Numbered from the stretch's first letter, positions 1,130 to 32,416 are shown. The stretch: DNA of 64,000 nucleotides from Chloroflexota bacterium (GCA_021802585.1 JAJZRQ010000003.1:2048-66047); one strand, 5' to 3'. Notes: generated by a model from the sequence alone, not told the origin. A program made the numbers and translations.

Positions 1130-2059
1130 ATGTCGCACGTCGTCGCGCGCCGGTGGGCACGCGAGGGAACCCGGAGGGGACTGGCCGCGCTGCGCGCCGA
1201 GGCGGTCGGGGTCGTGGTGGCGGCGCTCGTCGTCGGGCTCGTCCTCGCGCTCTCGTCCCCCGCCTCGGCGCCATGGGCGACCGGGCGCGACGCGTACTGC
1301 TACTGGATGCCGTCGCTCGGCGACCCGTACGCCCGGTCCGACTGGACGGCCCCGGTCGCGTACGTCTACTCGCCGGCGTTCCTCCAGGGCCTCGCCCCGC
1401 TCCGGGCCCTCCCGTGGCCGGGCTTCCTCGCCCTCTGGACGGCAGTCCTCCTCCTCGCCGTTCGCTGGCTCACGGGCGCCCGGCTGTGGGTCGCCGGGAT
1501 CGCGTTCGCGACGTTCGAGATCGCGGGCGGCAATATCCACCTCCTCCTCGCGGCGGCGATCGTCGCCGGCTTCCGCTGGCCGGCCGCGTGGGCCTTCGTC
1601 CTCCTCACGAAGGTCACGCCCGGGATCGGCCTCGTGTGGTTCGCGGTCCGCCGCGAGTGGCGGCACCTCGCGATCGCCGGCGCGGCCACGGCCGCCGTCG
1701 CCGGGATCTCGTTCGCGCTCGCCTCCCACGCCTGGCTCGACTGGCTCGCCGTCCTGGCGGAGAGCGCCGGCCGGACGACGGGGACGTGGTCGGCCGTCGG
1801 AATCCCGCTCGCCGTCCGGCTTCCCGTCGCCGTCGCCGTCGTCGCGTGGGGGGCGCGGACCGACCGCCGCTGGACGGTCCTGGTGGGCGCGATGCTCGCG
1901 CTCCCGGCGCTCTGGTACGGCAGCCTGGCCATGCTCCTCGCGGTGATCCCGCTGCGTTCCACGGCGGCGCCCTGGGCGCTCGGCCCGGCCCCGGCGCGGG
2001 CCGGCGTGCCCGCCGTCGCCCCCGCCGCGATCACGACGCCGCACCGGACCTCGGCCTAG
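1130..2059 (+). CDS. Polytopic membrane protein, DUF2029/GT87-like glycosyltransferase family
   Basis: Translation has multiple TM segments and motifs such as VAYVYSPAFLQGLAP and LLTKVTPGIGLVWFAV that I associate with GT87/DUF2029 mannosyltransferase-like proteins. The ORF opens at 977, but the first 51 codons are Arg-rich, so I prefer the ATG at 1130. Confidence 0.55.
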   Translation: MSHVVARRWAREGTRRGLAALRAEAVGVVVAALVVGLVLALSSPASAPWATGRDAYCYWMPSLGDPYARSDWTAPVAYVYSPAFLQGLAPLRALPWPGFLALWTAVLLLAVRWLTGARLWVAGIAFATFEIAGGNIHLLLAAAIVAGFRWPAAWAFVLLTKVTPGIGLVWFAVRREWRHLAIAGAATAAVAGISFALASHAWLDWLAVLAESAGRTTGTWSAVGIPLAVRLPVAVAVVAWGARTDRRWTVLVGAMLALPALWYGSLAMLLAVIPLRSTAAPWALGPAPARAGVPAVAPAAITTPHRTSA

Positions 2060-2372
2060 CGCTCGGCGAACCCGCGGGCCGTCCGGCGCGCGAGCGCGAG
2101 GTCCCGTTCCCGTCGCTGGCCCGGGCCCCGCGCATCACGCCGGAACGACACCCGTTGCCGGGCGGGCGACGACCGTTGCCCGCGTTGCCTCCGACCGTCG
2201 CCGCGATCGCTCCGATCGTCGCCGCGCTTCCCCGCGATCGTCGCCGCGATTCCCCGCGATCGTCGGGTGAAGAACGGTCGCCCGTGCGGTGGTGCCGGGC
2301 CCGCCGGGGGCGGAGAGTGGTCAGCGCACGGGGAGGCACGGCCGCCGCCCGTCGCGACACGAGGTGACACAG

Positions 2373-2675
2373 GTGGACCCGCTCGAGATCTTGCTGGCGA
2401 TCCTCATCTGGCTCCTCGTGCTGGGCTTCGCGCTCGTCCGCGCGCCGGGGACGGGCGGCCGGTCCCAGATCGGGGCCTGGCTCGCCCTCAGCGCCCTGAC
2501 GATGTTCGTCGTGTTCGTCGTCTTCTTCGTCGTCTGCCATGTCCTCCTCTTCACCCTCGGGACGGGCGCGGCGACGGTGGGCGTCGTGGCCGCCGTCGTG
2601 GCGCTCGAGGCGACGCCGATCACGTGGGCGCTCATCCTCCGCCGGCGCGGCCGCGACGCCACGGCGCAGGGATGA
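2373..2675 (+). CDS. Small membrane protein (3 predicted TM helices), unknown function
   Basis: Hydrophobic translation VDPLEILLAILIWLLVLGFALV...MFVVFVVFFVVCHVLLFTLG...VGVVAAVVALEA. GTG start at 2373 is preceded by GAGGTGA. Its stop overlaps the next gene's ATG (ATGA at 2672-2675). Confidence 0.45.
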   Translation: MDPLEILLAILIWLLVLGFALVRAPGTGGRSQIGAWLALSALTMFVVFVVFFVVCHVLLFTLGTGAATVGVVAAVVALEATPITWALILRRRGRDATAQG

Positions 2676-3403
2676 GCGGGCCGGACGGCCCGGGCACGAG
2701 CGGCGTGAGCGACGCGACGCCGGGCGGCGGTCCGCGCCTCGGGATCCTCCTCGCGATCTTCGACTTCCCGGCCCTCGTCGCCGGGTATCGCGCGGTGATC
2801 GAGGCCCAGCCCGACATGCGCGTCGTGGGCGTCGTCGACGACCGCGCGTCGCTCCGTGAGCAGGCTGCCCGGACCCCCGCCGACATCGTGATCTCGGAGT
2901 GCGTCCCGGGCTCCGGGTCGGGCTGCGCGTCGTTCGAGGCGATCGAGGCGATCCGGGCGGCAGCCCCGGGGACGCGGATCCTCGCCGTGGAGTGCCGCTG
3001 CGCGAGCGAGCAGTTCTCGCGGGCTCTCCGGGCCGGCGCGGACGGCTACCTCACCCGCGAGGCGGCCGTGGGCGACGTCGTCGAGGCGATCCACCGCCTT
3101 GCCCGCGGGGAGACGTACGTGAGCCCGGCGATCGTCACCCGGATGGTGGACACGTACGTCCGGCGCACGCCCGAGGCGACCGCCGACGACGTGTACGACG
3201 CCCTGAGCGAGCGGTCCCGCGAGGTCCTCCGCCTCGCCGCGTACGGTCACACGAACCGCGAGATCGCGCTGGCGCTGAACCTCTCGGAGCAGACGGTCCA
3301 CAGCCACCGCGCGGCGATCATGGCGAAGCTCGGGTTCCGCGACCGGGTGGAGCTCCTCCGCTACGCTCTCCGGCGCGGCGTGATCCAGGCCGCCGAGCTG
3401 TGA
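2672..3403 (+). CDS. LuxR/NarL-family regulator with atypical (Asp-less, Cys-bearing) receiver domain
   Basis: The C-terminal HTH LSERSREVLRLAAYGHTNREIALALNLSEQTVHSHRAAIMAKLG is LuxR-type. The N-terminal receiver-like fold has FDF in place of the DD pair and ISECVPGSGSGC in place of the phospho-Asp strand. It also has AVECRC at the T/S position and LTR at the Lys position. Confidence 0.85.
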   Translation: MSGPDGPGTSGVSDATPGGGPRLGILLAIFDFPALVAGYRAVIEAQPDMRVVGVVDDRASLREQAARTPADIVISECVPGSGSGCASFEAIEAIRAAAPGTRILAVECRCASEQFSRALRAGADGYLTREAAVGDVVEAIHRLARGETYVSPAIVTRMVDTYVRRTPEATADDVYDALSERSREVLRLAAYGHTNREIALALNLSEQTVHSHRAAIMAKLGFRDRVELLRYALRRGVIQAAEL

Positions 3404-3408
3404 CCGGC

Positions 3409-3486
3409 CCGATGCCCGACCCCGCGCCGGCGCACGACCCGATGCCCGACCCCGCGCCGGCGCACGACCCGGTGCCGGCGCACGAC
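3409..3486. repeat. 30-bp in-frame tandem repeat (2 copies plus a partial third) encoding PMPDPAPAHD
   Basis: ccgatgcccgaccccgcgccggcgcacgac occurs at 3409-3438 and 3439-3468, followed by a shortened third copy. Confidence 0.8.
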
Positions 3487-4275
3487 CCGCTGCCGGCGCT
3501 GGCGGCCGACGCGTCGCTCGACCGCCCGGCGGGCGCCCTCGACTCCGCTCCGGCGCCCCACTCCGCTCCGGCGCCCGACTCCGCTCAGGTGCGCCTCGCC
3601 GGCGCCCGGCGCGTCCTCCGCCGCCTCCGCCCGACGACCCGCCGCGGCGCGCTGCGGCTCGGGATCGCCGGCGCCGGCCTCGTGGCCCTCCTCGGCGTCG
3701 GCGCGGTCGGGATCGCGATCGCCGTGCCCTGGGCCTATGGCGAGTATGGCTTCCACCCGGAGCGGAACGCGCAGTCATGGGCGGCCCTCACGCCCCGCTA
3801 CGCGGACTCGACCCTCTGCCAGCGCTGCCACACCGCCGAGTTCTCCCCCTGGCAGGCCGCGCCGCACGCGGTCGTGACCTGCGAGAGCTGCCATGGGCCG
3901 CTCGGCGAGCACGCCGCGACCGCGCCCGTCCCGGCGACCGACGCGAACGTCGTCGTCGGTGCTCTGCCGGGGACGATCGCCGAGCCGCGCCCCGACCTCT
4001 GCGTCGTCTGCCACGAGCGGATCGCCGGGCGGCCCGCGGCGTTCCCCCAGGTGACGCTCACCGAGCACTACGGCGGGGCGACCTGCCGCGCCTGCCACGA
4101 CCCGCACACGGCGACGGCCGCGACCCCGCCCGACATCTCGCACCCGCTGGCGAAGCTGCCCGCGTGCGTCGTGTGCCACGCGCCGGCCGGCCTCAAGCCG
4201 CTCCCGGCCGGGCACGTCGAATCCCCCGACGCCGTCTGCCGGTCCTGCCATCGGGCCGCGGGCCCGGGCGACTAG
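3412..4275 (+). CDS. Membrane-anchored hexaheme c-type cytochrome
   Basis: Six CxxCH motifs (CQRCH, CESCH, CVVCH, CRACH, CVVCH, CRSCH) follow a Pro/Ala-rich repeat region and one TM helix (LRLGIAGAGLVALLGVGAVGIAIAV). An alternative GTG start at 3400 overlaps the upstream stop. Confidence 0.85.
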   Translation: MPDPAPAHDPMPDPAPAHDPVPAHDPLPALAADASLDRPAGALDSAPAPHSAPAPDSAQVRLAGARRVLRRLRPTTRRGALRLGIAGAGLVALLGVGAVGIAIAVPWAYGEYGFHPERNAQSWAALTPRYADSTLCQRCHTAEFSPWQAAPHAVVTCESCHGPLGEHAATAPVPATDANVVVGALPGTIAEPRPDLCVVCHERIAGRPAAFPQVTLTEHYGGATCRACHDPHTATAATPPDISHPLAKLPACVVCHAPAGLKPLPAGHVESPDAVCRSCHRAAGPGD

Positions 4276-4285
4276 GAGCGTCCCG

Positions 4286-5149
4286 ATGAGCGATCGCGAC
4301 ATGATGCCGGGCGACGGGCGGCCGAGGGGCGGCGCGGGGCTTTCCCGGCGACGGGTGCTCCAGGGCGGCCTGGCGGCCCTCCCCGCGCTCCTCGGCGCGC
4401 GGATCCTCGCGGGCGAGGGCCCGGCCGGCGCGGGGACGACCGCGCGGGCGGCGGAGCCCCCGACGCCGCCGGCCCACGACCCGACGGCCCACGACTGGGC
4501 ATTCGTCATGGACACGACGACGTGCATCGGCTGCGGCCGCTGCGTCGAGGCGTGCAAGCTCGAGAACGACGTCCCCGCGGAGCCGGAGACGAACCGGACG
4601 TGGGTCGAGCTCCACGTCCTCGGCCGCGACGGGAGCGTCGCCGTCACGTCGCCCGACGGCGGCATCGGCAGCTTCCCGGCGGGCGAGGCGGCGATCCCCG
4701 CCGAGGCCGTCGCGAACGCGTACTTCGTGCCCCGGACGTGCATGCAGTGCGAGAACCCGCCCTGCACGTGGGTCTGCCCGGTGAGCGCAACGTACGTGAC
4801 CCCCGACGGCGTCGTCCTCGTCGACGAGGGACGGTGCATCGGCTGCGGCTACTGCCTCGAGGCCTGCCCGTACGGGGCCCGCTACATGGTCCCGGCCGGC
4901 GAGCAGACCCCGAAGGGGACTGCCGGCGTCGTCGACAAGTGCACGTTCTGCTACCACCGGATCAGCCGCGGGAAGCTCCCGGCGTGCGCCGAGGTCTGCC
5001 CGGTGAACGCCCGGATCTTCGGCGACCGGAACGACCCGGCGAGCGCCGTGAGCGTCGCGCTCACCGAGCGGCGCGTCCGGGCGATGAAGCCGTCGCTCGG
5101 GACGCGGCCCCGCGTCTTCTACACCGGGCTCGAAGGCGAGGTGGAGTGA
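4286..5149 (+). CDS. Tat-exported 4Fe-4S ferredoxin-type subunit (NrfC/PsrB/HybA-like)
   Basis: Twin-arginine signal SRRRVLQGG. Cys clusters CIGCGRCVEAC, CMQCENPPC, CIGCGYCLEAC and CTFCYHR...C..VC are typical of the four-cluster iron-sulfur subunits that partner NrfD-type membrane proteins. Confidence 0.9.
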   Translation: MSDRDMMPGDGRPRGGAGLSRRRVLQGGLAALPALLGARILAGEGPAGAGTTARAAEPPTPPAHDPTAHDWAFVMDTTTCIGCGRCVEACKLENDVPAEPETNRTWVELHVLGRDGSVAVTSPDGGIGSFPAGEAAIPAEAVANAYFVPRTCMQCENPPCTWVCPVSATYVTPDGVVLVDEGRCIGCGYCLEACPYGARYMVPAGEQTPKGTAGVVDKCTFCYHRISRGKLPACAEVCPVNARIFGDRNDPASAVSVALTERRVRAMKPSLGTRPRVFYTGLEGEVE

Positions 5150-6543
5150 TGTCCGTCCACGTCGCCGGCCGGTCCCTGGACCCCAGCCCGCGCGCCGTCC
5201 TCCGGGCCCTCGGAGCCGAGGTCGCCGCCACGCCACGGGCCCTGAAGCTGTGGCTCGGCCTCCTCCTCGTCATGTGCGGGATCGGGGCGGGGGGGGCGGT
5301 CCTCAGCCTGCCGCCCGGGTGGGAGGTCCTCGGCACCTCCCCGAGCTTCGAGTGGGGGATCCTCATCACCGCGTACGTCTTCTTCGCGATCACGACGAGC
5401 GGCCTCTGCCTCGCCTCCTCGCTCGGGACCGTCTTCGGGGTCGAGATGTTCCTGCCCCTCGAGAAGCGTCACGCGATCCTCGCCCTCCTGAGCCTCGTCA
5501 CCGCGTTCGGGATCATCGCCCTCGACCTCCACTACCCGGTGCGGATGGTCTTCGGGGCCGTCCTCAGCCCGTCGCCCCTCTCGCCGATGTGGTGGATGGG
5601 CGTGTTCTACGGCATCTACCTCGTCTTCCTCGTGACCGAGGTCTGGAGCATGTTCACGGGGCGGTGGGGGATCCACCGGATCGCCTGCATCCTGTCCTCG
5701 ATCACCGCGGTCCTCGCGCCCACGACCCTCGGCGCGGTCTTCGGGATCCTCGCCGCGCGGTCGTTCTGGCACGGCGCGTTCACCCCGCCGGCGATGGTCG
5801 CCACGGCCCTCCTGTCGGGCGTCGCGCTCCTCGGGATCGTCTTCGCGCTCGTCCACCACTACCGGCTCACCGGCCACGAGCGGGCGGGCACGCTCGCGAT
5901 CCCCGCGATCCGGCTCCTCCTCGCGATCATGCTGCCGGTGACGGTCCTCGTCGTCGCCTGGCAGATGATGTTCGGCCTCTACGGCGCCGTCCCCGGCCTC
6001 GCGGACGCGACCGCGGCGATCCTCGTCGGGCCGCTCGCGCCGCTCTTCTGGATCGGCCGCGTCGTCATCGGGCTCGCGCTCCCGATCGGCCTCCTCCTCT
6101 GGCCCCGGACGCGGACGACGCCCGGCCTCTTCGCGGCGTCCTGCCTGACGTTCGTCGGGATCGCCGTCGACCGGACGGTCTTCGTGGCTGCGGGCCAGGT
6201 CGTCCCGAACTCGGCCGTCGCCGGAACCGTCTCCACGCCGTTCGCGGAGTACGTCCCGTCGCTCGTCGAGATCGCCGTCGTCGTCGGCGCGTTCGGCTTC
6301 TTCGGGCTCGTCTACACGCTCGCCGAGCGCTACCTCCCGATGGACGAGCATCGCGGCCACCTCGCGGGGGCGTTCCTCGGGACGAGCGCGCCGGTCCTCG
6401 CGCCGGAGCCGGTCCTCGCGCCGGAGCCGGTCCTCATCGCCGCCGCGACCGGCCCCGATGGGCCCGCGCCCGAGCCGCCGGATCCGGACGCGGACGCCGC
6501 CCTCGCCGCGTCGGCGGCCGGCTGGCCCGGAGGCGCGACGTGA
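5149..6543 (+). CDS. NrfD/PsrC-family polytopic membrane quinol-interacting subunit
   Basis: 464 aa with about 10 hydrophobic helices. The start overlaps the upstream stop (TGATG at 5147-5151) and the end overlaps the next start. Its genomic position after an NrfC-like gene supports the call. Confidence 0.8.
   Translation: MSVHVAGRSLDPSPRAVLRALGAEVAATPRALKLWLGLLLVMCGIGAGGAVLSLPPGWEVLGTSPSFEWGILITAYVFFAITTSGLCLASSLGTVFGVEMFLPLEKRHAILALLSLVTAFGIIALDLHYPVRMVFGAVLSPSPLSPMWWMGVFYGIYLVFLVTEVWSMFTGRWGIHRIACILSSITAVLAPTTLGAVFGILAARSFWHGAFTPPAMVATALLSGVALLGIVFALVHHYRLTGHERAGTLAIPAIRLLLAIMLPVTVLVVAWQMMFGLYGAVPGLADATAAILVGPLAPLFWIGRVVIGLALPIGLLLWPRTRTTPGLFAASCLTFVGIAVDRTVFVAAGQVVPNSAVAGTVSTPFAEYVPSLVEIAVVVGAFGFFGLVYTLAERYLPMDEHRGHLAGAFLGTSAPVLAPEPVLAPEPVLIAAATGPDGPAPEPPDPDADAALAASAAGWPGGAT
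6400..6435. repeat. 18-bp in-frame tandem repeat (APEPVL x2) in the NrfD-like C-terminal tail
   Basis: gcgccggagccggtcctc is repeated at 6400-6417 and 6418-6435. Confidence 0.75.
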
Positions 6544-7346
6544 GCGGCCGCCGGTTCGGCCGCCTCGTCCTCGGCCTGGTCGCGGCGGTCGCGGCCGTCG
6601 CCTTCGGCGTCGCGCTCGGCCTCGGCGTCATCCGGTCGGGCGTCCTCCAGGCAGGTCTCGGGCCGGGACCGACGACGTCGCCGTCGCCGACCCCTGCCCT
6701 CACCGCTCCCGCCGGGAGCCCGGGACCGATCGGCGGCACGCCGTCGCCGAAGCCGCCGGCCGTCGCCCTCGAGATGCCAGCGGGCTCGAACTGCCTCGCC
6801 TGCCACACGACCGCCGACGGCGGCGTCGGGAACGTCCCGATCCCACCGATCGGGCACCCCCTCGAGGGCTGGACGGCGTGCCTCTCCTGCCACGCCAGCG
6901 ACCGGCTCGTGCAGACGGCGCCCGGCCACGTGGGGATCCACGCCGACCAGTGCCTCCTCTGCCACACGGCGACGACCCCGGCGGCGGAGTCCCGGCCGCA
7001 CTCGACCCACCGGAACGTGGCGTGCCTCTCCTGCCACGGCTCGAAGGCGCCGCTCCCGGCGAGCATGCAGAACCGCTCCGAGAGCACCTGCTGGCTCTGC
7101 CACCAGGGGTCGTCGCAGGAGGCCCCGCTCTACCTCCACCCGACGCCCGCCGACGGCCAGTGCCTCACGTGCCACGTCGCCGGCAAGGTCGGGGCGCTCC
7201 CCCGCGACCACGCGGACCGGACGAACGACATGTGCACCGCCTGCCACGCGCCGGCGACGACGACCGCGGTGAAGGCGCCACACGACCTCGCGTCGCGCGA
7301 GGGGATGTGCACGTTCTGCCACGGGGAGTCGAGCGGGCGCCAGTAG
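6540..7346 (+). CDS. Membrane-anchored octaheme c-type cytochrome
   Basis: Eight CxxCH motifs (CLACH, CLSCH, CLLCH, CLSCH, CWLCH, CLTCH, CTACH, CTFCH). N-terminal TM anchor FGRLVLGLVAAVAAVAFGVALGLGV. The GTG start overlaps the upstream stop (GTGA at 6540-6543). Confidence 0.85.
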   Translation: MSGRRFGRLVLGLVAAVAAVAFGVALGLGVIRSGVLQAGLGPGPTTSPSPTPALTAPAGSPGPIGGTPSPKPPAVALEMPAGSNCLACHTTADGGVGNVPIPPIGHPLEGWTACLSCHASDRLVQTAPGHVGIHADQCLLCHTATTPAAESRPHSTHRNVACLSCHGSKAPLPASMQNRSESTCWLCHQGSSQEAPLYLHPTPADGQCLTCHVAGKVGALPRDHADRTNDMCTACHAPATTTAVKAPHDLASREGMCTFCHGESSGRQ

Positions 7347-7541
7347 GACGGCGGACCCGGCGCCGGGCACGGGACCGGCACGCCCTCGGGCGTCGACGAG
7401 GGCCCCACGTCCCTCGCGCCGTGGGCCACACGGATCGCGCAACGCGACCGATGGCCCTACGCCCACCCCACCCCCGTCGGCGGATAGTGGCACGAGCGTC
7501 CCGGCGCGGCATCGGCGCGCGATGCACGACGGTGAGGTGAC

Positions 7542-8246
7542 GTGAGCACGAGCGGGAGCATCCCGGGGAGCGGACGGCAGCTCGGCGTCCTCCTCGCGAT
7601 CTTCGACTTCCCCATGCTCAACGTCGGGCTCCGCGAGGTGATCGACGCCGAGCCGGACATGCGCGTGCTCGGCGAGGCCTCGAGCCGCGAGGCGATGCGC
7701 GAGGAGGTCCTCGCGTCGGGCGCCGACGTCGTCGTCACCGAGTGCCTCCCGTACGACCACTCCGGCTGCACCTCGTTTCAGATGATCGAGGCGATCCGCG
7801 CGGCGAAGCCGGGGATCCGGATCCTCGCCGTCGAGTGCCGCTGCTCGAGCGAGCAGTTCTCCCTGGCGATCAAGGCCGGCGCCGACGGCTTCCTCACCCG
7901 CGAGGCCCAGGTGTCGGACTTCGTGACCGCGATCCGCTCGATCAGCCGCGGGCAGACGTACGTGAGCCCCTCGATCGTGACCCGGATGGTCAACACGTAC
8001 GTCCTGAAGACGCCCGGCGGCACGCTCGAGGACCCGTACGAGACCCTGAGCGAGCGCGAGCGCGAGGTCATGCTCCTCGCCGCGGTCGGCCACACGAACC
8101 GGGAGATCGCCCGGACGCTCCACCTCGCCGAGCAGACCGTCCACAACTACCGGGCCAACGTCATGGAGAAGCTCGGCTTCCACGACCGGGTCGAGCTCCT
8201 CAAGTACGCGATCCGCCGCGGCCTCATCGACGTGGCGGACCTGTAG
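7542..8246 (+). CDS. LuxR/NarL-family regulator, paralog of 2672-3403 with the same atypical Cys-bearing receiver
   Basis: It aligns by eye along its full length with the 2672-3403 product. It conserves FDF, TECLPYDHSGC, AVECRC and LTR, plus the LuxR HTH LSEREREVMLLAAVGHTNREIARTLHLAEQTVHNYRANVMEKLG. Confidence 0.85.
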   Translation: MSTSGSIPGSGRQLGVLLAIFDFPMLNVGLREVIDAEPDMRVLGEASSREAMREEVLASGADVVVTECLPYDHSGCTSFQMIEAIRAAKPGIRILAVECRCSSEQFSLAIKAGADGFLTREAQVSDFVTAIRSISRGQTYVSPSIVTRMVNTYVLKTPGGTLEDPYETLSEREREVMLLAAVGHTNREIARTLHLAEQTVHNYRANVMEKLGFHDRVELLKYAIRRGLIDVADL

Positions 8247-8279
8247 GGGGACGCAGGCCGCCACGCGTCCCCCTTCTTC
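8246..8279. terminator. Bidirectional intrinsic-terminator-like hairpin between convergent genes
   Basis: GGGGGACGC-aggccgccac-GCGTCCCCC followed by TTCTTC. It lies directly after the LuxR stop and before the convergent MFS stop. Confidence 0.6.
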
Positions 8280-8286
8280 AGGACAT

Positions 8287-9660
8287 TCAGACGGGCGTCG
8301 TGCCTCCCTCGTCCGGCGCCGGGGGGACCCGGCCGCCGAGCCACCAGAGGCCGGCCGCGATCCCGGCGCACGTCGCGGCCGTGGCCAGCCACAGGGTCGC
8401 TCCCGGGGCGACGTCGAGGACGAGGCCGCCGGCGACCGGCCCGATCGCCGAGCCGAGGCCCATGGCCGCCCCGAGGTAGCCCTGGTAGCGCCCCCGGAGC
8501 GCGGGCGGCGACAGCTCGGAGACGAACGACGTCTCGACGGGGAAGACGAACATCTCGCCGAGCGTGGCGAGGACGACCGTGCCGGCGAGCGCGGCGATCG
8601 CGAGGTCGGTCCCCGGGACGATCCCGATCACGAGGTACCCGAGCCCGTACCAGGCCATGCCCACGGCCATGAACCGCGGCCGGGACCGCCGCTCGGCGAG
8701 CGACGCCACGCGGAGCTGGAAGACGAAGATGAGGATCCCGTTGAGGGCGAAGAGGAGGCCCCAGGTCGCGGTCGAGACGTCGAGGCGGGCGTGGGCGTGG
8801 ATCGGGAGGGTGACGACCCACTGGAACGACGCGGCGTGGACCGCCACCGCGAGGAGGAGGAAGAGGGCGAGGATCCGTCGCGGGCCCAGGGGCCGGGCGC
8901 CGCCACGGACCGCCGCCCCGGCCGGGGGCGACGAGGCCGGCGGCGCGGCGGGGAGCGCCGGCGCCCCCTCCCCGGCGATCCCGGGGCCGCCCTCCCCGGC
9001 CTGGCCCGCCACATCGGCCGGGCCTGGCACGCCGGCCGCGGGGTGGATCCCCGGCCGCGTCTCGCGGAGGCCGACGACGAGGATCACCGCGTAGCCGGCG
9101 ATGATCACGCCGGCGGTCACGAACAGGACCCCGTACCCGAGGTTCGAGAGCCCGGCGCCGACCGACGGGCCCGCGATCCAGCCGACGCTCGAGGCCATCG
9201 CCAGGAGGCCGTACGCGCGCGGGCGCCGCTCGACCGGGACGACGTCGGCGACGGCGGCCCGCGCTGCCGGGACGAACGGCGGGTCGACGAGGCCGAGGAG
9301 GAGGGTGAGGGCGGCGACCCAGGCCAGGTCCCGGACGAGGCCCATCGCGGCGACGGTCGCGGCGGTCAGGATGATCGAGACGACCATGACCGGCTTGCGC
9401 CCGACCCGGTCGGCGAGCCAGCCGCCAACGGCGTTCGAGACGATCGAGACGACCGCGTAGAGCCCGACGACGGCGCCGGCGGCGAGGGCGGTCGCGCCGA
9501 GCTCGGCCGTCAGGTAGATCGTGAGGAACGGGAAGACGAGGCTGAACCCGAAGCTCGCGACGAGGTCGCCTGCGGCGAGGACGAAAATCGCGCGGTCGAA
9601 CTCGCGCCGCAGCTCGCGGAGCCTCCTGGTGGGCGCGAGGCGCTCACGGAGCACGGTCAC
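8287..9660 (-). CDS. MFS transporter
   Basis: 457 aa, 12-TM-like profile with the MFS loop motif GGWLADRVGRKPVM. An Ala/Pro-rich central loop is present. Confidence 0.8.
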   Translation of the reverse strand: MTVLRERLAPTRRLRELRREFDRAIFVLAAGDLVASFGFSLVFPFLTIYLTAELGATALAAGAVVGLYAVVSIVSNAVGGWLADRVGRKPVMVVSIILTAATVAAMGLVRDLAWVAALTLLLGLVDPPFVPAARAAVADVVPVERRPRAYGLLAMASSVGWIAGPSVGAGLSNLGYGVLFVTAGVIIAGYAVILVVGLRETRPGIHPAAGVPGPADVAGQAGEGGPGIAGEGAPALPAAPPASSPPAGAAVRGGARPLGPRRILALFLLLAVAVHAASFQWVVTLPIHAHARLDVSTATWGLLFALNGILIFVFQLRVASLAERRSRPRFMAVGMAWYGLGYLVIGIVPGTDLAIAALAGTVVLATLGEMFVFPVETSFVSELSPPALRGRYQGYLGAAMGLGSAIGPVAGGLVLDVAPGATLWLATAATCAGIAAGLWWLGGRVPPAPDEGGTTPV

Positions 9661-23363: not shown

Positions 23364-23999
23364 TCACGACGCCTCGGCCTCCTCGCCGCGCCAGGCCTCG
23401 AGCGCCTCGCGGCCGATGAGGGCCGTCATCGCGAGGGCGGCGAGCGGATCCGCCCACCACGCTCCGACGAGGGCGTTCGCACCGATCCCGATGATGAGGA
23501 AGACGGAGAGCCAGAAGCAGGCGTCCGTCTGGAATGCGTCGGCGGCCATCGCCCGGCTGCCGAGGGCGACGCCGACCGCCCGCTTCGCGCGGGCGAGCCA
23601 GCGCATGACGGCGATCGAGGCGAGCCCGAGGGCGATCCCGACCGGGGACGGCTCCGGGCGCTCGCCGGCGGCGAGCGACGTCACGGAATCCCAGCCGATG
23701 TAGACGGCGAGGAGGACGAGCGAGGCGGCGACGAGTCGCCGGGCCCGCTGCTCGACCTGCTCGACCCGCTCCTCGTCCTCCGCCCGCCGCTCGGCGTGGA
23801 GCCGCCAGATCATCACCGAGCCCGACGCCGACTCGACGAAGCTGTCGATGCCGAAGCCGAGGAGCGCGACGGAGCCGGCGGCGATGCCGGCGGTGACCGC
23901 GACGAGGCCCTCGACGACGTTCCAGCCGACCGTCAGGTACTCGAGCCGCAGCGCCCGGCGGAGGAGACCGCGGCGCTCGCCCGTCGTCGTCGCGGTCAC
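23364..23999 (-). CDS. Short cation-efflux (CDF-related) membrane protein lacking the cytoplasmic C-terminal domain
   Basis: LEYLTVGWNVVEGLVAVTAGIAAGSVALLGFGIDSFVESASG and MAADAFQTDAC resemble TM2/TM5 metal-site helices of cation diffusion facilitators. Only 211 aa. The GTG start overlaps the czcD-like stop (GTGA). Confidence 0.6.
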   Translation of the reverse strand: MTATTTGERRGLLRRALRLEYLTVGWNVVEGLVAVTAGIAAGSVALLGFGIDSFVESASGSVMIWRLHAERRAEDEERVEQVEQRARRLVAASLVLLAVYIGWDSVTSLAAGERPEPSPVGIALGLASIAVMRWLARAKRAVGVALGSRAMAADAFQTDACFWLSVFLIIGIGANALVGAWWADPLAALAMTALIGREALEAWRGEEAEAS

Positions 24000-24889
24000 G
24001 CGTGGTGCCGCTCCTCGAGGCGGCGCCGGTCGGCCGCCTCGAGCTGGAACGTGGAGTGCTCGATGTCGAAGTCGCCGGCGAGGCAGCCGCAGAGCTCGTC
24101 GAGGACGGCCGGGGCCTCCGCTCCTTCGGCAAGCACGACGTGGGCCGAGACGACGGGCACGCCCGAGGTGATCGTCCAGGCGTGGAGGTCGTGGACGTCG
24201 ACGACGCCGTCGAGCCCGCGGATGTGGGCCCGGACCTCGTCGAGGTTCATCCCCTTCGGCGTCGCCTCGAGGAGGACGTCGGTCGCCTCGCGGAGGAGGC
24301 CCCACGTGCGCGGCAGGATGAGGAGCCCGATCGCCGCCGAGGCGACGGCGTCGGCCGCCGTCCAGCCCGTCGTGGCGATGACGACGGCGGCCACGATCAC
24401 GGCCGCCGAGCCGGCGAGGTCGCCGAGCACCTCGAGGTACGCCCCCCGCAGGTTGAGGCTCTCGCCCTGGGCCCGGCGCAGGAGGACGAGCGAGGCCGCG
24501 TTCGCGACGAGGCCGAGGACGGCGACCGCGAGCATGAGACCGGACTCGACCTCCGGCGGCTCCGCGAGGCGACGCCAGGCCTCGACGAGGACGAGGACGG
24601 CGACGCCGAAGAGGAGGACCGCGTTCGCCACGGCGGCGAGGATCTCGACGCGGAGGAAGCCGTACGTCCGGCCGTTCGACGGCGGCCGGCGGGCGAACCA
24701 GATCGCGCCGAGGGCGAGGGCGAGGCCGACGACGTCCGTGAGCATGTGGCCGGCGTCCGCGAGGAGGGCGAGGCTGTTCGCCGCGATCCCGCCGACGACC
24801 TCGACGGCGAGGACCGTCGCGGTGACCGCGAAGACGGCGGCGAGGCGCCGCCGGTGGGCGTCCGCCGCGCTGACGGGGACGTGGGGCAC
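23996..24889 (-). CDS. czcD: Cation diffusion facilitator, CzcD/ZitB-like metal efflux protein
   Basis: IAANSLALLADAGHMLTDV, LEVLGDLAGS and the C-terminal domain DVHDLHAWTITSG...HSTFQLE are typical CDF motifs. Confidence 0.85.
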   Translation of the reverse strand: MPHVPVSAADAHRRRLAAVFAVTATVLAVEVVGGIAANSLALLADAGHMLTDVVGLALALGAIWFARRPPSNGRTYGFLRVEILAAVANAVLLFGVAVLVLVEAWRRLAEPPEVESGLMLAVAVLGLVANAASLVLLRRAQGESLNLRGAYLEVLGDLAGSAAVIVAAVVIATTGWTAADAVASAAIGLLILPRTWGLLREATDVLLEATPKGMNLDEVRAHIRGLDGVVDVHDLHAWTITSGVPVVSAHVVLAEGAEAPAVLDELCGCLAGDFDIEHSTFQLEAADRRRLEERHHA

Positions 24890-24891
24890 GA

Positions 24892-25281
24892 TCAGGCCGA
24901 GGCTTCCGCGGCGTGCGTCGCCGCGTCGAGCACGAGGGCCCGGAGGTGATCGTCGACGAGGCGGTAGCGGGCGATCCGGCCGTCCTTCCGGCGGACGACG
25001 GCGCCGCGCTCGCGGAGCGTCCGGAGCTGATGCGAGAGGGCCGAGACGCTCATCCCGAGGACGAGCGCGATGTCGCAGACGCAGAGGTCCGCCTCCGCGA
25101 TCGCGAGGAGGTGGACGATCCGGGCGCGCGAGGGGTCGGCGAGGGTCGAGAAGAGGTCGGCGACCGCCGTCGAGCCCGCCGGGCCGAGGCTCCGGCCGAG
25201 GAGCGGGCGGATCGCCGCCGGGTGGAGGCACGCGACCTCGCAGCGGTCGGCGTCGATCGCCGAGGCGAACAGTTGAGCCAC
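24892..25281 (-). CDS. ArsR/SmtB-family metal-sensing repressor
   Basis: LADPSRARIVHLLAIAEADLCVCDIALVLGMSVSALSHQLRTLRERGAV is a winged HTH with the LCVCD metal-site motif. It lies immediately upstream of the CDF genes. Confidence 0.85.
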   Translation of the reverse strand: MAQLFASAIDADRCEVACLHPAAIRPLLGRSLGPAGSTAVADLFSTLADPSRARIVHLLAIAEADLCVCDIALVLGMSVSALSHQLRTLRERGAVVRRKDGRIARYRLVDDHLRALVLDAATHAAEASA

Positions 25282-25401
25282 CGCTCAAGTATTGCACGCC
25301 GCCGGCCGCCCCGCCGTGCCGGTGCGGCCGCGCCGCGCCGGTGTCCCGGCCCGGGCCCGCATGCGGTTGCGCGAACCGCGGATGTGGCGGACCCTTCGCA
25401 C

Positions 25402-26103
25402 GTGACCACGTCCCCGTCCCGCATCCTCGTCGTCGACGACGAGGCCCCGATTCTCGACCTCGTCCGCGGCTACCTCGAGCGCGAGGGGTTCACGGTGACG
25501 ACCGCGGCGGACGGCCCTTCCGCCCTCGAGGCCGTGCGGTCCGCGGCGCCCGACGTCGTGATCCTCGACGTCATGCTCCCCGGCATCGACGGGATCGAGG
25601 TCTGCCGGCGGCTGCGGACGTTCTCCGACGCGTACGTCCTCATGCTCACCGCCCGCGGCGAGGAGATCGACCGGATCGTCGGGCTGAGCGTCGGCGCCGA
25701 CGACTACCTCGTGAAGCCGTTCTCGCCGCGCGAGCTCGTGGCCCGGGTGAAGGCGCTCCTCCGCCGCCCGCGCGGGGCGGGCCCCGGCGCGGAGCCCGCC
25801 TCGCGGATCGCGGCCGGCCTCGAGATCGACGAGGCCCGCCGATCCGTCCGCGTCGACGGCCGGGCCGTGGAGCTGACGACGATCGAGTTCGACCTCCTGG
25901 CGACCCTCGCCCGCGACCCCGGCGTCGTCGTCCGGCGGCAGGCGCTCCTCGACCGCGTCTGGGGGATCGACTTCGTCGCCGACGACCATCTCGTCGACGT
26001 CCACGTCGCGAACCTCCGCCGCAAGCTCGGCGACGACCCGGCGCAGCCGCGCTTCGTCGAGACGGTCCGCGGCGTCGGCTACCGGCTCCGCGAGGAGGCG
26101 TGA
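25402..26103 (+). CDS. OmpR-family response regulator (TCS-1)
   Basis: Canonical receiver RILVVDDE...DVVILDVMLPGIDG...MLTARGEE...[10 protein letters not shown] and a winged-helix output TIEFDLL...VDVHVANLRRKL...ETVRGVGYRL. Confidence 0.9.
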   Translation: MTTSPSRILVVDDEAPILDLVRGYLEREGFTVTTAADGPSALEAVRSAAPDVVILDVMLPGIDGIEVCRRLRTFSDAYVLMLTARGEEIDRIVGLSVGADDYLVKPFSPRELVARVKALLRRPRGAGPGAEPASRIAAGLEIDEARRSVRVDGRAVELTTIEFDLLATLARDPGVVVRRQALLDRVWGIDFVADDHLVDVHVANLRRKLGDDPAQPRFVETVRGVGYRLREEA

Positions 26104-27194
26104 TGCCGTTCATCCGCTCGCTCCGCGCCCGGCTCCTCGTCGCCTTCCTCGTCGTCATCGGGGCGACCCTCGGGACCGTCGCCGTGGCGGCACTCCTCGT
26201 CGGCCCCGGCTACTTCGCCGAGGCGATGGGGCACCTCCCGGGGGACCAGATGGGGCAGGCGATGGCCGACGCGACCCAGGCGGCGTTCGACGACGCGATG
26301 CAGCGCGCCCTCGTCGCGGCGACGGTGATCGCCGTCGTCAGCGCGACCGTCGTGAGCCTCGCCGTCGCGGCCCGGATCGCGCGGCCGGCGGCGACGCTCG
26401 CGGCGGCGGCGCGGCGGGTGGCCGGCGGCCACTATGCCGAGCGCGTGCCGGTCGAGGCGCCCGAGGAGCTCGGCGCGCTCGCCGCGTCGTTCAACGAGAT
26501 GGCGGGCTCGCTCGAGGCGACGGAGCGACGCCGCCTCCAGCTCGTCGGCGACGTGGCCCACGAGCTGCGGACGCCGCTCACGACGCTCGACGGGTACCTG
26601 GAAGGTCTGGAGGACGGCGTCATCGCACCGACCGCCGAGACCTGGCGCCTCCTTCGCGCGGAGACCGGCCGGCTCACCAGGCTCGTGAACGACCTCTCCG
26701 AGCTCTGGCGGGCCGAGGCCCGCCAGTTCGCGCTGCGGATCGAGCCCCTCGACATCGCGGGGCTCGCGCGCGAGGTCGCCGACCGCTTCGCGCCGCTGGC
26801 CGCGCCGCGGTCCGTGCGCCTCGACCTGCGCGGCGGGCCGGCCGTCGCGGTCGCCGACCGCGACCGGGTCGCCCAGGTCCTCGCGAACTACCTCTCGAAC
26901 GCTCTCCGCCACGCCCCCGACGGCTCGGCGATCACGGTGTCCGCGACGACGCGCGACGGGCGGGTCGCGCTCGCCGTCGCCGACGAGGGCCCGGGCCTCT
27001 CCCGCGACCAGCTGGAGGCCGTCTTCGAGCGCTTCTACCGCGCCGACCCCGCCCGGAGCCGCGCCTCCGGCGGGTCCGGGATCGGCCTCGCGATCGTGCG
27101 CGCGCTCGCGGCGGCGATGGGCGGGCGCGCCTGGGCCGAGAGCCCGGGACCCGGCCGCGGCGCGACGTTCGTCCTGGAGCTGCCGGCGGCCTGA
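26103..27194 (+). CDS. Sensor histidine kinase with HAMP domain (TCS-1)
   Basis: Two TM helices flank a Met/His/Asp-containing periplasmic loop. H-box VGDVAHELRTPLTTL, N-box NYLSNALRHAP, G-boxes DEGPGL and GGSGIGLAIV. The ATG overlaps the RR stop. Confidence 0.9.
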   Translation: MPFIRSLRARLLVAFLVVIGATLGTVAVAALLVGPGYFAEAMGHLPGDQMGQAMADATQAAFDDAMQRALVAATVIAVVSATVVSLAVAARIARPAATLAAAARRVAGGHYAERVPVEAPEELGALAASFNEMAGSLEATERRRLQLVGDVAHELRTPLTTLDGYLEGLEDGVIAPTAETWRLLRAETGRLTRLVNDLSELWRAEARQFALRIEPLDIAGLAREVADRFAPLAAPRSVRLDLRGGPAVAVADRDRVAQVLANYLSNALRHAPDGSAITVSATTRDGRVALAVADEGPGLSRDQLEAVFERFYRADPARSRASGGSGIGLAIVRALAAAMGGRAWAESPGPGRGATFVLELPAA

Positions 27195-27254
27195 TGCGGC
27201 GGCTCGAGGCGGCGGCTCGAGGCGGCGGCTCGAGGCGGCGGCCTGAGGCGGCGG
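27195..27254. repeat. 13-bp tandem repeat (3 perfect copies, 1 degenerate copy, then a partial) directly after the kinase stop
   Basis: gcggcggctcgag occurs at 27195, 27208 and 27221, then gcggcggcctgag at 27234, then a partial copy. Confidence 0.8.
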
Positions 27255-27434
27255 GCCCGCGCGGCAGGTCGCGCGGCAGGCAGGACCCGGCCGCGGGACC
27301 GCCGGCGGGCCCGGCGCTTGACCGGATCTTGAGGCGCGCTTGCCCCGCGCCGCATCGGCGCCTGAGGCGGTTCCGTGATCCTCGAGGCGTCGCCGGAGGC
27401 GTCCCCCCGGCGAGCCCGCACCGAGGTGCCGACG

Positions 27435-27665
27435 ATGATGACTGGCTGGACCATGGGCCTCGCGGGCTGGGTCTGGATGGGCATCTGGATCCTCGCCCTG
27501 GTCGTCCTCGTCTGGCTCCTCGTGCGGACCCCCACTCCCCGTTCCGAGCCCGGGGCGCCGATCGACGTGCTCCGGGCCCGGCTCGCCCGCGGGGAGATCA
27601 CCCCCGAGGAGTTCGAGCGGGCCCGCGCCCTGCTCGACGCCGACACCCCGAGGAGCTCCCCGTGA
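27435..27665 (+). CDS. SHOCT-domain small membrane protein
   Basis: MMTGWTMGLAGWVWMGIWILALVVLVWLLV (TM helix) followed by LRARLARGEITPEEFERARALL (SHOCT motif). A paralog lies at 49879-50100, and the start was chosen by alignment to it. Confidence 0.7.
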   Translation: MMTGWTMGLAGWVWMGIWILALVVLVWLLVRTPTPRSEPGAPIDVLRARLARGEITPEEFERARALLDADTPRSSP

Positions 27666-27684
27666 TTCCCTGGGCCACCCGGCC

Positions 27685-28143
27685 ATGACCACGCGTGCCG
27701 CCCGCCGGAGCGCCGACGCGTCCCGGCCCACGACGCTCGCACGCCTCCGGCCGCTCGCCTTCGCCGGCGTCGTCGTCGGCGTCCTCACCGTTGGGGCGTT
27801 CCTCGCCTTCGGCGACTTCCTCAACCGGCCGGCGACCGCGGCGGGGACGATCAGCGTCCAGAGCTCGATGGCCGGCTTCACGCCTGCCGAGATCCGGGTG
27901 AAGGCCGGCTCCACCGTCACCCTCGACTGGTGGACGCAGGACGCGGCGATGCACCTCCAGGGCGGCGTCCACACGATGATCGCGCCCGACCTCGGGCTGC
28001 GGGAGGAGCTCGCGGCGGAGAGCCGGAGGGCGGTCGTGTGGCAGGTCCCGGACAAGCCCGGGACGTACGACGTCTACTGCGACACGTGCTGCGGCGGGAA
28101 GGACAGCCCGACGATGCACGGCACGATCGTCATCGAGGCCTGA
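27685..28143 (+). CDS. Membrane-anchored cupredoxin-fold protein with unusual C-x2-CC-GG...MH motif
   Basis: N-terminal TM anchor. FTPAEIRVKAGSTVTLDW...PGTYDVYCDTCCGGKDSPTMHGTIVIEA follows the cupredoxin strand pattern, but the ligand loop is Cys-rich. A paralog lies at the window's right edge. Confidence 0.7.
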   Translation: MTTRAARRSADASRPTTLARLRPLAFAGVVVGVLTVGAFLAFGDFLNRPATAAGTISVQSSMAGFTPAEIRVKAGSTVTLDWWTQDAAMHLQGGVHTMIAPDLGLREELAAESRRAVVWQVPDKPGTYDVYCDTCCGGKDSPTMHGTIVIEA

Positions 28144-28146
28144 GCG

Positions 28147-29034
28147 GTGGCGACCTCCGCCGCCCCGACCCGGACGACGCCGGCCGCACCCGACGAGGCA
28201 CCTCCGGCGGCCCCGCGCCTCGTCCTCGGCCTGCCCGTCGCGGCGGCGGTGCTCGGGGGCGCCCTCGCGGCCGTCGGCCTCGTCGCCGCCGCGTACGTGG
28301 CGGCCGTCCCGTTCGACACCGCGGCGTTCGGCGGGCTGACCGTCCCGACCGTCCTCGCCTCCGGCGTCGCCGATGGGTTCAACCCCTGCGCATTCGCCCT
28401 CCTCGTCCTGTTCGCGACGTACACCCTCACCCTCGCGAACGCCGTGACGTCGGACGGCCGGCCGACGCTCGAGGCGCGGCGCCGCCTCCTCGGCGCGGGG
28501 TCGCTCTACGTCGGCGCCGTCTGGGTCACGTACTTCATCATCGGGCTCGGCCTCCTGAGCTTCCTCGGCTGGCTCGGGCGCGACCACCTCGTCGCCCGGG
28601 TCGCCTCGATCGTGGCCCTCCTCATGGCGCTGTGGATGCTGAAGGACGTCCTCCTGCCGGGCGTCGGCCCGTCGATGCTGGCCCCCTCGGGGACCCACGG
28701 GCGGATGCAGCGGGCGATGGAGCGCGGCGGCCTCGCCGGGATGCTCGTCGCGGGGGTCCTCGTCGGGATCTGCACGGTCCCCTGCTCGGGCGCGATCTAC
28801 CTCGACATCGTGGCCGTCCTCCACGCCTCCGGCGGCGGCCTCACCGGCCTCGCCCTCCTCGCCCTCTACAACATCGCGTTCATCGTCCCGCTCCTCGTCC
28901 TCCTCCTGGCCGTGAGCGATCGCCGCGTGCTCGGGCAGCTGGGGCGCTGGAACCGGGCGAACTCACCGTGGATCAAGACCGGCCTCGCCCTCGCGGTCAT
29001 CGCGATGAGCTTCGGCCTCATGGTGTCGATGTGA
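28147..29034 (+). CDS. CcdA/DsbD-like transmembrane thiol-disulfide electron-transfer protein
   Basis: Six-TM profile with a Cys in TM1 (GFNPCAFALLVLF) and a CTVPCSGAIY motif in a later helix, as in the DsbD/CcdA superfamily. A paralog lies at 62808-63665. Confidence 0.7.
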   Translation: MATSAAPTRTTPAAPDEAPPAAPRLVLGLPVAAAVLGGALAAVGLVAAAYVAAVPFDTAAFGGLTVPTVLASGVADGFNPCAFALLVLFATYTLTLANAVTSDGRPTLEARRRLLGAGSLYVGAVWVTYFIIGLGLLSFLGWLGRDHLVARVASIVALLMALWMLKDVLLPGVGPSMLAPSGTHGRMQRAMERGGLAGMLVAGVLVGICTVPCSGAIYLDIVAVLHASGGGLTGLALLALYNIAFIVPLLVLLLAVSDRRVLGQLGRWNRANSPWIKTGLALAVIAMSFGLMVSM

Positions 29035-30789: not shown

Positions 30790-30862
30790 GTGCCGACCCT
30801 CGCGGCGTCCGCCTGCCGCGCCGGCCGCCGGGGGCGACGAAGGCGCTCGTGCCTGCCCCTCG

Positions 30863-32362: not shown

Positions 32363-32416
32363 GATCGGGCTCCCCGATGGTCGGCGTGAATGGCGGACGG
32401 CATCGCCGGCGTGCCT

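Follow-up and report, generated by a model that had tools for sequence, protein, structure and literature searches.

A putative menaquinol:multiheme-cytochrome c oxidoreductase module in Limnocylindria, with four-cysteine pseudo-receiver regulators

RESULTS

Organization of the locus

We analyzed a 64,000-nucleotide (nt) stretch of DNA from a Chloroflexota bacterium (GCA_021802585.1, JAJZRQ010000003.1:2048-66047), hereafter called the window, with a G+C content of about 75%. Seven genes are packed tightly on the + strand of its positions 2373 to 8246 (Table 1). Four of them code for a hexaheme cytochrome c, an iron-sulfur (FeS) protein of the NrfC type, a membrane protein of the NrfD type and an octaheme cytochrome c, and they are accompanied by a small membrane protein gene and two regulator genes. 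A first-pass annotation made from the sequence alone had described the four as translationally coupled genes that carry 14 CxxCH heme-binding motifs, lack a catalytic subunit and look like a conduit for electrons from quinol to the periplasm or the cell exterior. All 14 motifs are present in these four open reading frames (ORFs) and all are kept in orthologues. Motif, Pfam and NCBIfam analyses likewise bore out the subunit types, the twin-arginine (Tat) export signal, the N-terminal anchors and the heme counts.

Table 1. Features of the window
Feature	Position	Strand	Remarks
CGACGGCCGTCG-like array	2140-2200		Equivalent arrays in related loci
Near-palindrome CGACGACCGTTG, candidate operator	2167-2178		206 nt upstream of the unit's first gene
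Small membrane protein, 100 amino acids (aa)	2373-2675	+	Three predicted helices
Regulator 1, 243 aa	2672-3403	+	REC + GerE domains
Hexaheme cytochrome c, 287 aa	3412-4275	+	Six CxxCH
Repeat in the cytoplasmic N-terminus of the hexaheme protein	3412-3480	+	MPDPAPAHDP twice in tandem, then VPAHDP
NrfC-type iron-sulfur protein, 287 aa	4286-5149	+	Twin-arginine motif, 16 Cys
NrfD-type membrane protein, 464 aa	5149-6543	+	Pfam NrfD match
Octaheme cytochrome c, 268 aa	6540-7346	+	Eight CxxCH
Regulator 2, 234 aa	7542-8246	+	REC + GerE domains
Metal-handling genes, first dense region	23364-29339
DsbD/CcdA-like membrane protein	28147-29034		Weak match, 24.3 bits, below cut-off
Complex I-like cluster	29356-37808	-	NuoA, 439-aa weak NuoD match, NuoH, J, K, L, M, N
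Metal-handling genes, second dense region	38146-59101
Multicopper oxidase	40063-41205
HMA-domain P-type ATPase	56618-59101
Cytochrome b/b6-type gene	59711-60796		Pfam Cytochrom_B_N_2, 102.5 bits

Neighbors among the first six genes either overlap, by 1 to 4 nt, or stand 8 to 10 nt apart, and Shine-Dalgarno-like purine runs precede the genes of the module. The octaheme gene has a GTG start that overlaps the nrfD stop codon. The proposed coupling of the four genes therefore holds, but not the proposed start of the unit: coupling begins upstream, at the small membrane protein gene, whose stop codon overlaps the start of the regulator 1 gene as ATGA. Regulator 1, taken at first for a mere flank, ends only 8 nt before the hexaheme gene. 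Regulator 2 is separated from the octaheme gene by a 195-nt gap and is a separate transcription unit. A scan of positions 2000 to 8700 for promoters and terminators returned nothing and is uninformative at 75% G+C. Public gene calls made independently for three contigs from this organism (NCBI GCA_027399955.1 being one) yield the same seven products with identical lengths.

No other predicted ORF of the window has a CxxCH motif. As the motifs are confined to the module and conserved in its orthologues, the module cannot be put down to chance. The absence of catalytic partners was also confirmed. CxxCK motifs occur neither in the window cytochromes nor in 104 multiheme ORFs of related loci, and a tblastn search with a MopB-like molybdopterin-oxidoreductase query found no match in the window or in 1.1 Mb of sequence from 80 related loci. 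No reductase gene was recognized in the window or in the flanks of those loci.

Conservation among relatives

Limnocylindria (Ellin6529) are an abundant, uncultured class of soil and freshwater bacteria regarded as aerobic oxidizers of gases and organic carbon. Relatives of the module were collected by scanning one genome per GTDB species, which gave 124 confirmed loci, 80 of which were kept. Nearly all of the latter are labeled as metagenome-assembled genomes (MAGs) of Chloroflexota or Candidatus Limnocylindria/Limnocylindrales, and they come from soil, aquifers, permafrost and lakes. The NrfD proteins share 53 to 78% identity across these species-level loci. Wherever the contig reaches far enough, the order regulator, hexaheme cytochrome, NrfC, NrfD, second cytochrome is near-universal, with one NrfD gene per locus. 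The regulator lies upstream of the module in 63 to 65 of the 80 loci, which is nearly every locus whose contig extends that far, and the small membrane protein gene is found directly 5' of it in 42 to 52. A second regulator, on either strand, follows the module in some 25 close relatives. The bracketing by two regulators noticed in the first-pass annotation is thus limited to the subclade of the window, and the 8-heme form of the second cytochrome, like the second regulator, is confined to a single clade.

The only recurrent gene families at these loci are those of the six module genes, small membrane protein and regulator included; the next plausible family, found in 24 loci, is housekeeping-like. 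Catalytic genes next to the module in orthologous loci, as an ordinary annotated operon might have, were not found: the core is kept amid unrelated flanks. In the window these flanks encode a TetR regulator, a GT87 glycosyltransferase, MFS transporters, a methyltransferase and an FAD oxidase. With both the molybdopterin-oxidoreductase query and the CxxCK scan empty, a catalytic subunit is absent from the neighborhood of every locus examined.

Metagenomes contain hundreds of close NrfD relatives (55 to 79% identity), none of them functionally named. In public databases the module proteins are called "hypothetical protein" or bear generic or likely misleading names such as "HybB-like" and "molybdoenzyme membrane anchor." The hydrogenase anchor implied by the JGI name "HybB-like" was rejected, as no flank holds hydrogenase subunits; HypA occurs upstream of the module only in the organism of the window. 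We searched the literature and found no description of such a module in Limnocylindria/Ellin6529.

Some MAGs have two copies of the module (L006 with L027 in one MAG, L040 with L056 in another). The L006 and L027 copies are one of the 8-heme type and one of the 5-heme type, and with both in a single MAG the two types may differ in role.

The NrfC-type and NrfD-type subunits

The NrfC-type protein carries an SRRRVLQ twin-arginine motif, and 63 of 72 orthologues match RRx[FVLI][LIV]. Its 16 Cys residues form four ferredoxin-type groups, all kept in at least 70 of the 72, and it matches Pfam Fer4_11 with 74 bits; at 287 aa it comprises the ferredoxin part only. PsrB is its best solved relative (2vpw_B, 5e-46), and its best NCBIfam model is DsrO (187.3 bits, cut-off 200), followed by TtrB and NrfC. 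The 16 Cys and the Tat signal place it among the four-cluster ferredoxin subunits of the NrfC/complex iron-sulfur molybdoenzyme type. Since all four Cys groups are complete and conserved, the protein is predicted to be exported by Tat with four [4Fe-4S] clusters, as in PsrB, NrfC and DsrO.

The NrfD-type protein belongs to the NrfD superfamily (PF03916, 81.2 bits for a cut-off of 25.8). An AlphaFold2 model built from 40 homologues (predicted local distance difference test [pLDDT] score, 79.5) shows some ten membrane helices; the cytoplasmic tail of the protein is variable. Its four best Foldseek matches are the ActC subunits of Chloroflexus, Flavobacterium, Roseiflexus and Rhodothermus (TM-score, 0.66 to 0.72), followed by ActF and the 8-helix PsrC. 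With 15 to 16% identity over 435 to 443 aligned columns, the likeness to ActC is at the level of the fold only, and neither the single sequence nor a 40-sequence profile matched any solved structure. The best NCBIfam models, DsrP (45.5 bits, cut-off 350) and QrcD (21.6 bits, cut-off 570), are far below threshold. Searched against 1.84 billion cluster representatives, the NrfD profile gave only 1,671 matches at an E value of 1e-3 or lower, 179 of them at 1e-30 or lower; the clade is small and distinct. The invariant residues include Asp126, at the outer end of helix 2, and Ser142/Ser145; no pattern of Cys or His heme ligands was noted among them.

The 10-helix NrfD proteins of a sister clade, from metagenome contigs (L084 to L163), likewise fit no named family. 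Many are encoded in molybdopterin (733 aa)/FeS (184 aa)/NrfD (383 aa) operons confirmed by Pfam, often preceded by a gene for a DUF3373 protein of about 490 to 590 aa (e.g., L088, 1625-3109). Others occur in NrfD/FeS/triheme or nonaheme/NrfD/FeS arrangements or in other gene orders near cytochromes. The Limnocylindria module looks like a further case in which a Psr-type FeS/NrfD pair is joined to multiheme cytochromes and not to a molybdoenzyme.

The two cytochromes

Each of the six CxxCH motifs of the hexaheme protein is kept in at least 69 of 72 orthologues, 65 of which have exactly six. Six His residues outside these motifs do not vary in an alignment of 40 sequences and occur in at least 70 of the 72. 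The pattern fits six bis-His hemes that would serve only to carry electrons, with neither a spare Cys nor an open site. In solved structures the hexaheme profile finds weak matches to MtrA (1e-8) and ActA (0.012), and the protein is a candidate counterpart of ActA, QrcA or DsrJ.

At the N-terminus of the hexaheme protein, an Arg-rich stretch is followed by one hydrophobic helix, which by its sequence would be either a membrane anchor or a long signal peptide. The second cytochrome begins in the same way, and both are predicted to have their N-terminus inside and their heme domain outside. The ATG at 3412 is supported by a public protein of 287 aa (P0121), with alternative starts at 3400 and 3589. 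Most orthologues have about 219 aa and apparently no N-terminal extension, which makes the choice among the three uncertain.

In two relatives we observed a 24-heme protein, in which the hexaheme cytochrome is fused to some 18 further c7-type hemes (L066, 474-2372; L055, 2994-4955). It replaces the normal first cytochrome in L066 and is encoded by an extra upstream gene in L055. In other relatives the module adjoins a gene for a decaheme protein of about 560 to 590 aa with an N-terminal region of the NapC/NirT type (L013, 12038-13741, - strand; L016, 6365-8080, - strand; L050, 3793-5553; L065, 682-2364).

The heme number of the second cytochrome varies, with 5 hemes in 48 related species, 7 in 5 and 8 in 20. 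The count of eight in the first-pass annotation is correct for the window, whose protein has 8 CxxCH motifs and 16 His, and for its clade, but not for the family. In the octaheme protein, an N-terminal anchor and a tether of about 50 aa rich in Pro, Thr, Ser and Ala lead to a conserved core with 5 hemes, which is followed by an extension with 3 hemes that is specific to the clade. Every one of the 58 sequences compared has the first five motifs. In the core, three distal His residues are invariant and a fourth occupies one or the other of two neighboring positions; Met79 and Met176 are nearly invariant, a pattern that makes one His/Met heme possible. The core matches NrfB weakly (E value, 0.007). 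The two cytochromes share a homologous stretch of three hemes, which come last in the hexaheme protein and first in the second cytochrome (hhalign probability, 97%).

Many 5-heme variants continue after the core with a low-complexity Pro/Ser/Ala spacer and end with a short W/F-x-L-V/I-x-P-like motif such as TWALVTP, SWALVRP or RWGLILP (e.g., L027, 5641-6351; L030, 9324-10031; L037, 9413-10090). This motif could be a docking or sorting signal.

The regulators and a candidate operator

The two regulators are paralogues (62% identity), as had been proposed, with REC and GerE domains. Their GerE matches (65.5 bits for regulator 1 and 69.7 for regulator 2; cut-off, 23.5) identify output domains of the NarL/FixJ type, regulator 1 matches Pfam Response_reg with 31.3 bits, and VraR and NarL are the best solved relatives. 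Alignment with NarL showed that D59 is replaced by Glu in 58 of 64 sequences and K109 by Arg in all 64, with Val or Phe in place of D13 and Asp or Glu in place of S87. The phospho-acceptor Asp, acidic pocket, Thr/Ser and Lys that characterize NarL/FixJ receivers were thus not found. With the phospho-acceptor replaced, the regulators are indeed atypical, and on the strength of the alignment their receiver domains can be called pseudo-receivers. No histidine kinase gene adjoins them.

Four Cys residues (C77, C85, C108 and C110), are each conserved in 54 to 60 of the 64 sequences. Relative to the former Asp, one is adjacent (+1) and another lies in the loop that follows (+9); the other two occupy positions +1 and +3 relative to the former Thr/Ser. 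Regulator 2 shares the Glu, the Arg and the four Cys with regulator 1. FixT of Caulobacter binds an Fe-S cluster through four Cys in a receiver domain, the first such case according to its authors (PMC7078487). Given this precedent and the conservation of the four Cys, it is plausible that the regulators are thiol-based or Fe-S sensors of redox state or O2, and by analogy they may be a DNA-binding counterpart of FixT. If so, they would extend the single published case of an Fe-S receiver to DNA-binding regulators.

A CGACGGCCGTCG-like 12-mer is found 135 to 272 nt (mostly 135 to 226) upstream of the small membrane protein gene in 25 of 40 loci, compared with 1.7% of 3,618 control windows. The palindrome often occurs in 2 or 3 copies 21 nt apart. 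Within the window alone its count is not significant (2 matches, 1.0 expected). Arrays are present in the window and at equivalent positions in L003, L009, L017, L022, L026, L076 and others. The palindrome is likely an operator for the GerE-type regulators, which would bind to it. Expression of the unit is probably conditional, under the control of orphan pseudo-receivers that would use their four Cys to sense redox state or O2.

The small membrane protein

The first gene of the unit codes for a protein to which hydropathy analysis gives three helices and which has no Pfam match. We take it to be an accessory subunit or else a partner of the regulator in the membrane. A role in heme or metal binding was rejected, as its single Cys and His are not conserved.

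Other genes of the window

A complex I-like cluster on the - strand has genes for NuoA, H, J, K, L, M and N and a weak match to NuoD; NuoB, C, I, E, F and G were not recognized there. The cluster may be a Nuo/Mrp-like module that consists of the membrane arm only or is atypical in some other way. The two regions flanking this cluster are dense in metal-handling genes, including those for a cation-efflux protein, several two-component systems and small CxxC metal-binding ORFs. The cytochrome b/b6-type gene sits among many metal-homeostasis genes; near it there is no c-type cytochrome gene, and the adjacent ORFs have no Pfam match, nor was a Rieske protein recognized among them.

DISCUSSION

The module falls outside the Nrf, alternative complex III (ACIII), Qrc, Dsr and Hmc systems, since the defining features of each were looked for and not found, and it is an undescribed version of the quinol:multiheme-cytochrome oxidoreductases. 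The view that it has a subunit composition of its own is upheld by family-specific models that stay below their cut-offs and by the lack of the extra subunits that define those systems. In several known NrfD complexes, namely ACIII, Qrc, Nhc and the DsrJOP part of DsrMKJOP, the working subunit is likewise a multiheme cytochrome (PMC8076601).

We propose that the module probably specifies a self-contained menaquinol:multiheme-cytochrome c oxidoreductase at the outer face of the cytoplasmic membrane of monoderm Limnocylindria, passing electrons outward to an external partner. Its products may assemble into one complex, in which the 10-helix NrfD-type subunit would bind and oxidize quinol near the outer membrane surface. 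Electrons would pass to the four [4Fe-4S] clusters of the exported NrfC-type subunit, then to the anchored hexaheme cytochrome, encoded first like ActA, QrcA, DsrJ and NhcA, and on to the second cytochrome (with 5 hemes mostly, 8 here), whose flexible Pro/Thr-rich tether would let it deliver them to a partner outside the membrane. The likeliest partners would be extracytoplasmic or extracellular acceptors, for example minerals of Fe(III) or Mn(IV), quinones of humic matter or additional multiheme cytochromes. The carriers amount to four iron-sulfur clusters and 11 to 14 hemes, and with the hemes as its working end such a machine would need no catalytic subunit. The lineage has been inferred to be monoderm (bioRxiv 10.1101/2021.08.23.457424), so that the heme domains would face the cell wall and the exterior. 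Drawn from anatomy and analogy, the idea of a conduit from quinol to the outside has the support that sequence data can give. The 24-heme and decaheme proteins of some species, together with the plastic heme number of the second cytochrome, favor a wire to the outside over a housekeeping complex.

Several observations weigh against this proposal. It rests on sequences and models, from which the direction of electron flow cannot be read. The assignment of Asp126 and Ser142/Ser145 to a quinone site would follow from their spacing alone, an Asp followed after about 18 residues by a Ser, which is also the spacing given for quinone sites in DsrP, QrcD and NhcC (PMC8076601). The AlphaFold2 model of the hexaheme protein, computed without hemes (pLDDT, 79.7), has no significant Foldseek match (best E value, 0.46), and without hemes such a model is uninformative. 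Fused NrfD-cytochrome ORFs in some records (P0093; L018) are topologically sensible, but they come from long-read MAGs with frameshifts, may be artifacts and deserve little weight. Most members of the lineage are facultative aerobes, and nearly all of its genomes encode cytochrome c oxidase (bioRxiv 10.1101/2021.08.23.457424), which makes the feeding of an oxidase a serious alternative; the possible His/Met heme of the second cytochrome would fit such a role.

In that alternative, the module would be a minimal analogue of ACIII, with menaquinol reducing the tethered penta- or octaheme cytochrome and the latter reducing cytochrome c oxidase, for aerobic respiration in a monoderm without soluble periplasmic cytochrome c. 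The resemblance to ACIII (ActABCDEF; 6F0K, 6BTM, 6LOD, 8K9E) is considerable: a 10-helix NrfD-type subunit whose best structural matches, over its full length and with TM-scores near 0.7, are the ActC subunits of four ACIII structures; a Tat-exported four-cluster FeS module at the outer face; and a membrane-anchored multiheme cytochrome encoded first in the operon, with no catalytic cofactor beyond the hemes. The hexaheme profile aligns weakly but collinearly with Chloroflexus ActA, membrane helix included, and the 5-heme core may, like ActA, combine four bis-His hemes with one His/Met heme. The presence of an oxidase in these genomes and the retention of the module in many species of the class also agree with an aerobic function. 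However, the module has no molybdopterin-like ActB B1 domain, ActD, monoheme ActE or second NrfD-like subunit ActF, its cytochromes carry 6 plus 5 or 8 hemes and not 5 plus 1, and its NrfD protein has no detectable sequence or profile match to ActC. ActB and QrcC have one [3Fe-4S] and three [4Fe-4S] clusters, whereas the full set of 16 Cys predicts four [4Fe-4S] clusters here. An ordinary ACIII was rejected on the grounds of the missing subunits and of these 16 Cys. The dedicated regulators, the variation between 5, 7 and 8 hemes and the neighboring 10- and 24-heme proteins suit a conditional wire better than a housekeeping complex, and the cytochrome b gene elsewhere in the window and the two module copies of some MAGs also speak against the analogy. 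On balance we regard an ACIII-like function as unlikely, though it is the alternative to be taken most seriously.

Electrons could also flow the other way, from an outside donor such as Fe(II), reduced humics, a partner cell or periplasmic-type dehydrogenases to menaquinone, with charge separation across NrfD, as in Qrc and Nhc. QrcABCD and NhcABCD/HmcABC combine a multiheme cytochrome (with six hemes in QrcA) with an FeS protein and a 10-helix NrfD protein and have no reductase; the cytochrome is their working subunit, and Nhc has a small extra membrane subunit as well (PMC8076601). The composition of the module matches QrcACD and NhcABC, in which a hexaheme or nonaheme cytochrome is found in complexes described as cytochrome:quinone oxidoreductases (PMC8076601), and the models that match it best, although weakly, are DsrO/DsrP, QrcC/QrcD and HmcB. 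The lineage includes members that oxidize CO or H2 and fix CO2 (bioRxiv 10.1101/2021.08.23.457424). Unlike Qrc and Nhc of sulfate reducers, the module has no QrcB, nor any other MopB-like gene; it has two membrane-anchored cytochromes and occurs in monoderm Chloroflexota, and its scores are far below the cut-offs of QrcC (105; cut-off, 400), QrcD (21.6; 570) and HmcB (102.7; 420). The conserved neighbors of the module include no donor enzyme, be it a hydrogenase, a formate dehydrogenase or a Cyc2-like protein. Bis-His hemes of low potential and [4Fe-4S] clusters suit either direction and do not decide the matter, and we consider the reverse flow distinctly improbable.

Least probable of all, and in our opinion very unlikely, is that the module represents the membrane electron-delivery half of a reductase encoded elsewhere, be it NrfA-like, an octaheme or molybdopterin enzyme, or a sulfur function of the DsrJOP type. 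The proximity of the NrfC-type protein to DsrO, and then to TtrB and NrfC, and the classical molybdopterin/FeS/NrfD operons of the sister clade would be in keeping with such a role. Nevertheless, no catalytic gene was found within about 8 kb on either side in the 80 loci or in the 64-kb window, whereas the reductases known to depend on NrfCD normally share an operon with it. The module lacks CxxCK, DsrMK and a conserved spare Cys for a DsrJ-type His/Cys heme, and its 11 to 14 hemes make an extra carrier unnecessary.

NrfBCD and NetBCD share with the module a pentaheme cytochrome, an NrfC protein with four [4Fe-4S] clusters and NrfD, and the NrfBCD-like NetBCD is a stand-alone inner-membrane quinol dehydrogenase that feeds an extracellular electron transfer pathway (PMC8805035). 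But NrfD of the Nrf type has 8 helices and not 10, and NrfB and NetB are soluble whereas both cytochromes of the module are anchored. The NrfC model scores 138.9 for a cut-off of 377.6, and the NrfD equivalog model has no match at an E value of 0.01 or lower. An ordinary nrf operon was thus rejected, given these models and the absence of CxxCK and NrfA. DsrJOP has the same gene order of cytochrome, FeS protein and NrfD, DsrO and DsrP are the best hidden Markov model matches, and DsrP has 10 helices. DsrO and DsrP nevertheless fall short of their cut-offs, no DsrM- or DsrK-like genes are found among the conserved neighbors, and the cytochrome is an apparently all-bis-His hexaheme protein where DsrJ is a triheme protein. 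DsrJOP was rejected for want of DsrMK and of a candidate His/Cys heme.

The outward conduit that we favor also has a precedent in the NrfD/FeS/multiheme clusters of Methanoperedens, proposed to be menaquinone:cytochrome c oxidoreductases; some NrfD proteins from clusters of Methanoperedens and metal reducers group with Chloroflexota sequences (PMC7327174). The arrangement of a small membrane protein and a pseudo-receiver regulator found here is not described for those predicted clusters.

More broadly, many or most Limnocylindria may carry a dedicated monoderm conduit of new composition by which minerals or humics are respired, or extracellular electrons taken up, in anoxic microsites. It would be under the control of a new class of DNA-binding pseudo-receivers that sense O2 or redox state at a four-Cys, possibly Fe-S, site in place of the former phosphorylation pocket. 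We put this forward only tentatively, as a possibility that we rate as less likely than not. The architecture of the module will not surprise specialists; what recommends it for experiments is its retention in many species of the class, together with a minimal composition and unusual regulators. If the proposed function is correct, it would be a compact natural machine of the ACIII/Qrc type without a molybdopterin-derived relic subunit, suited to asking what a 10-helix NrfD protein does alone, including whether it couples electron transfer to proton movement. An abundant soil and freshwater class would then possess an unrecognized link between its quinone pool and the exterior, which would matter for the cycling of iron, manganese and humics and for survival where microsites turn anoxic.

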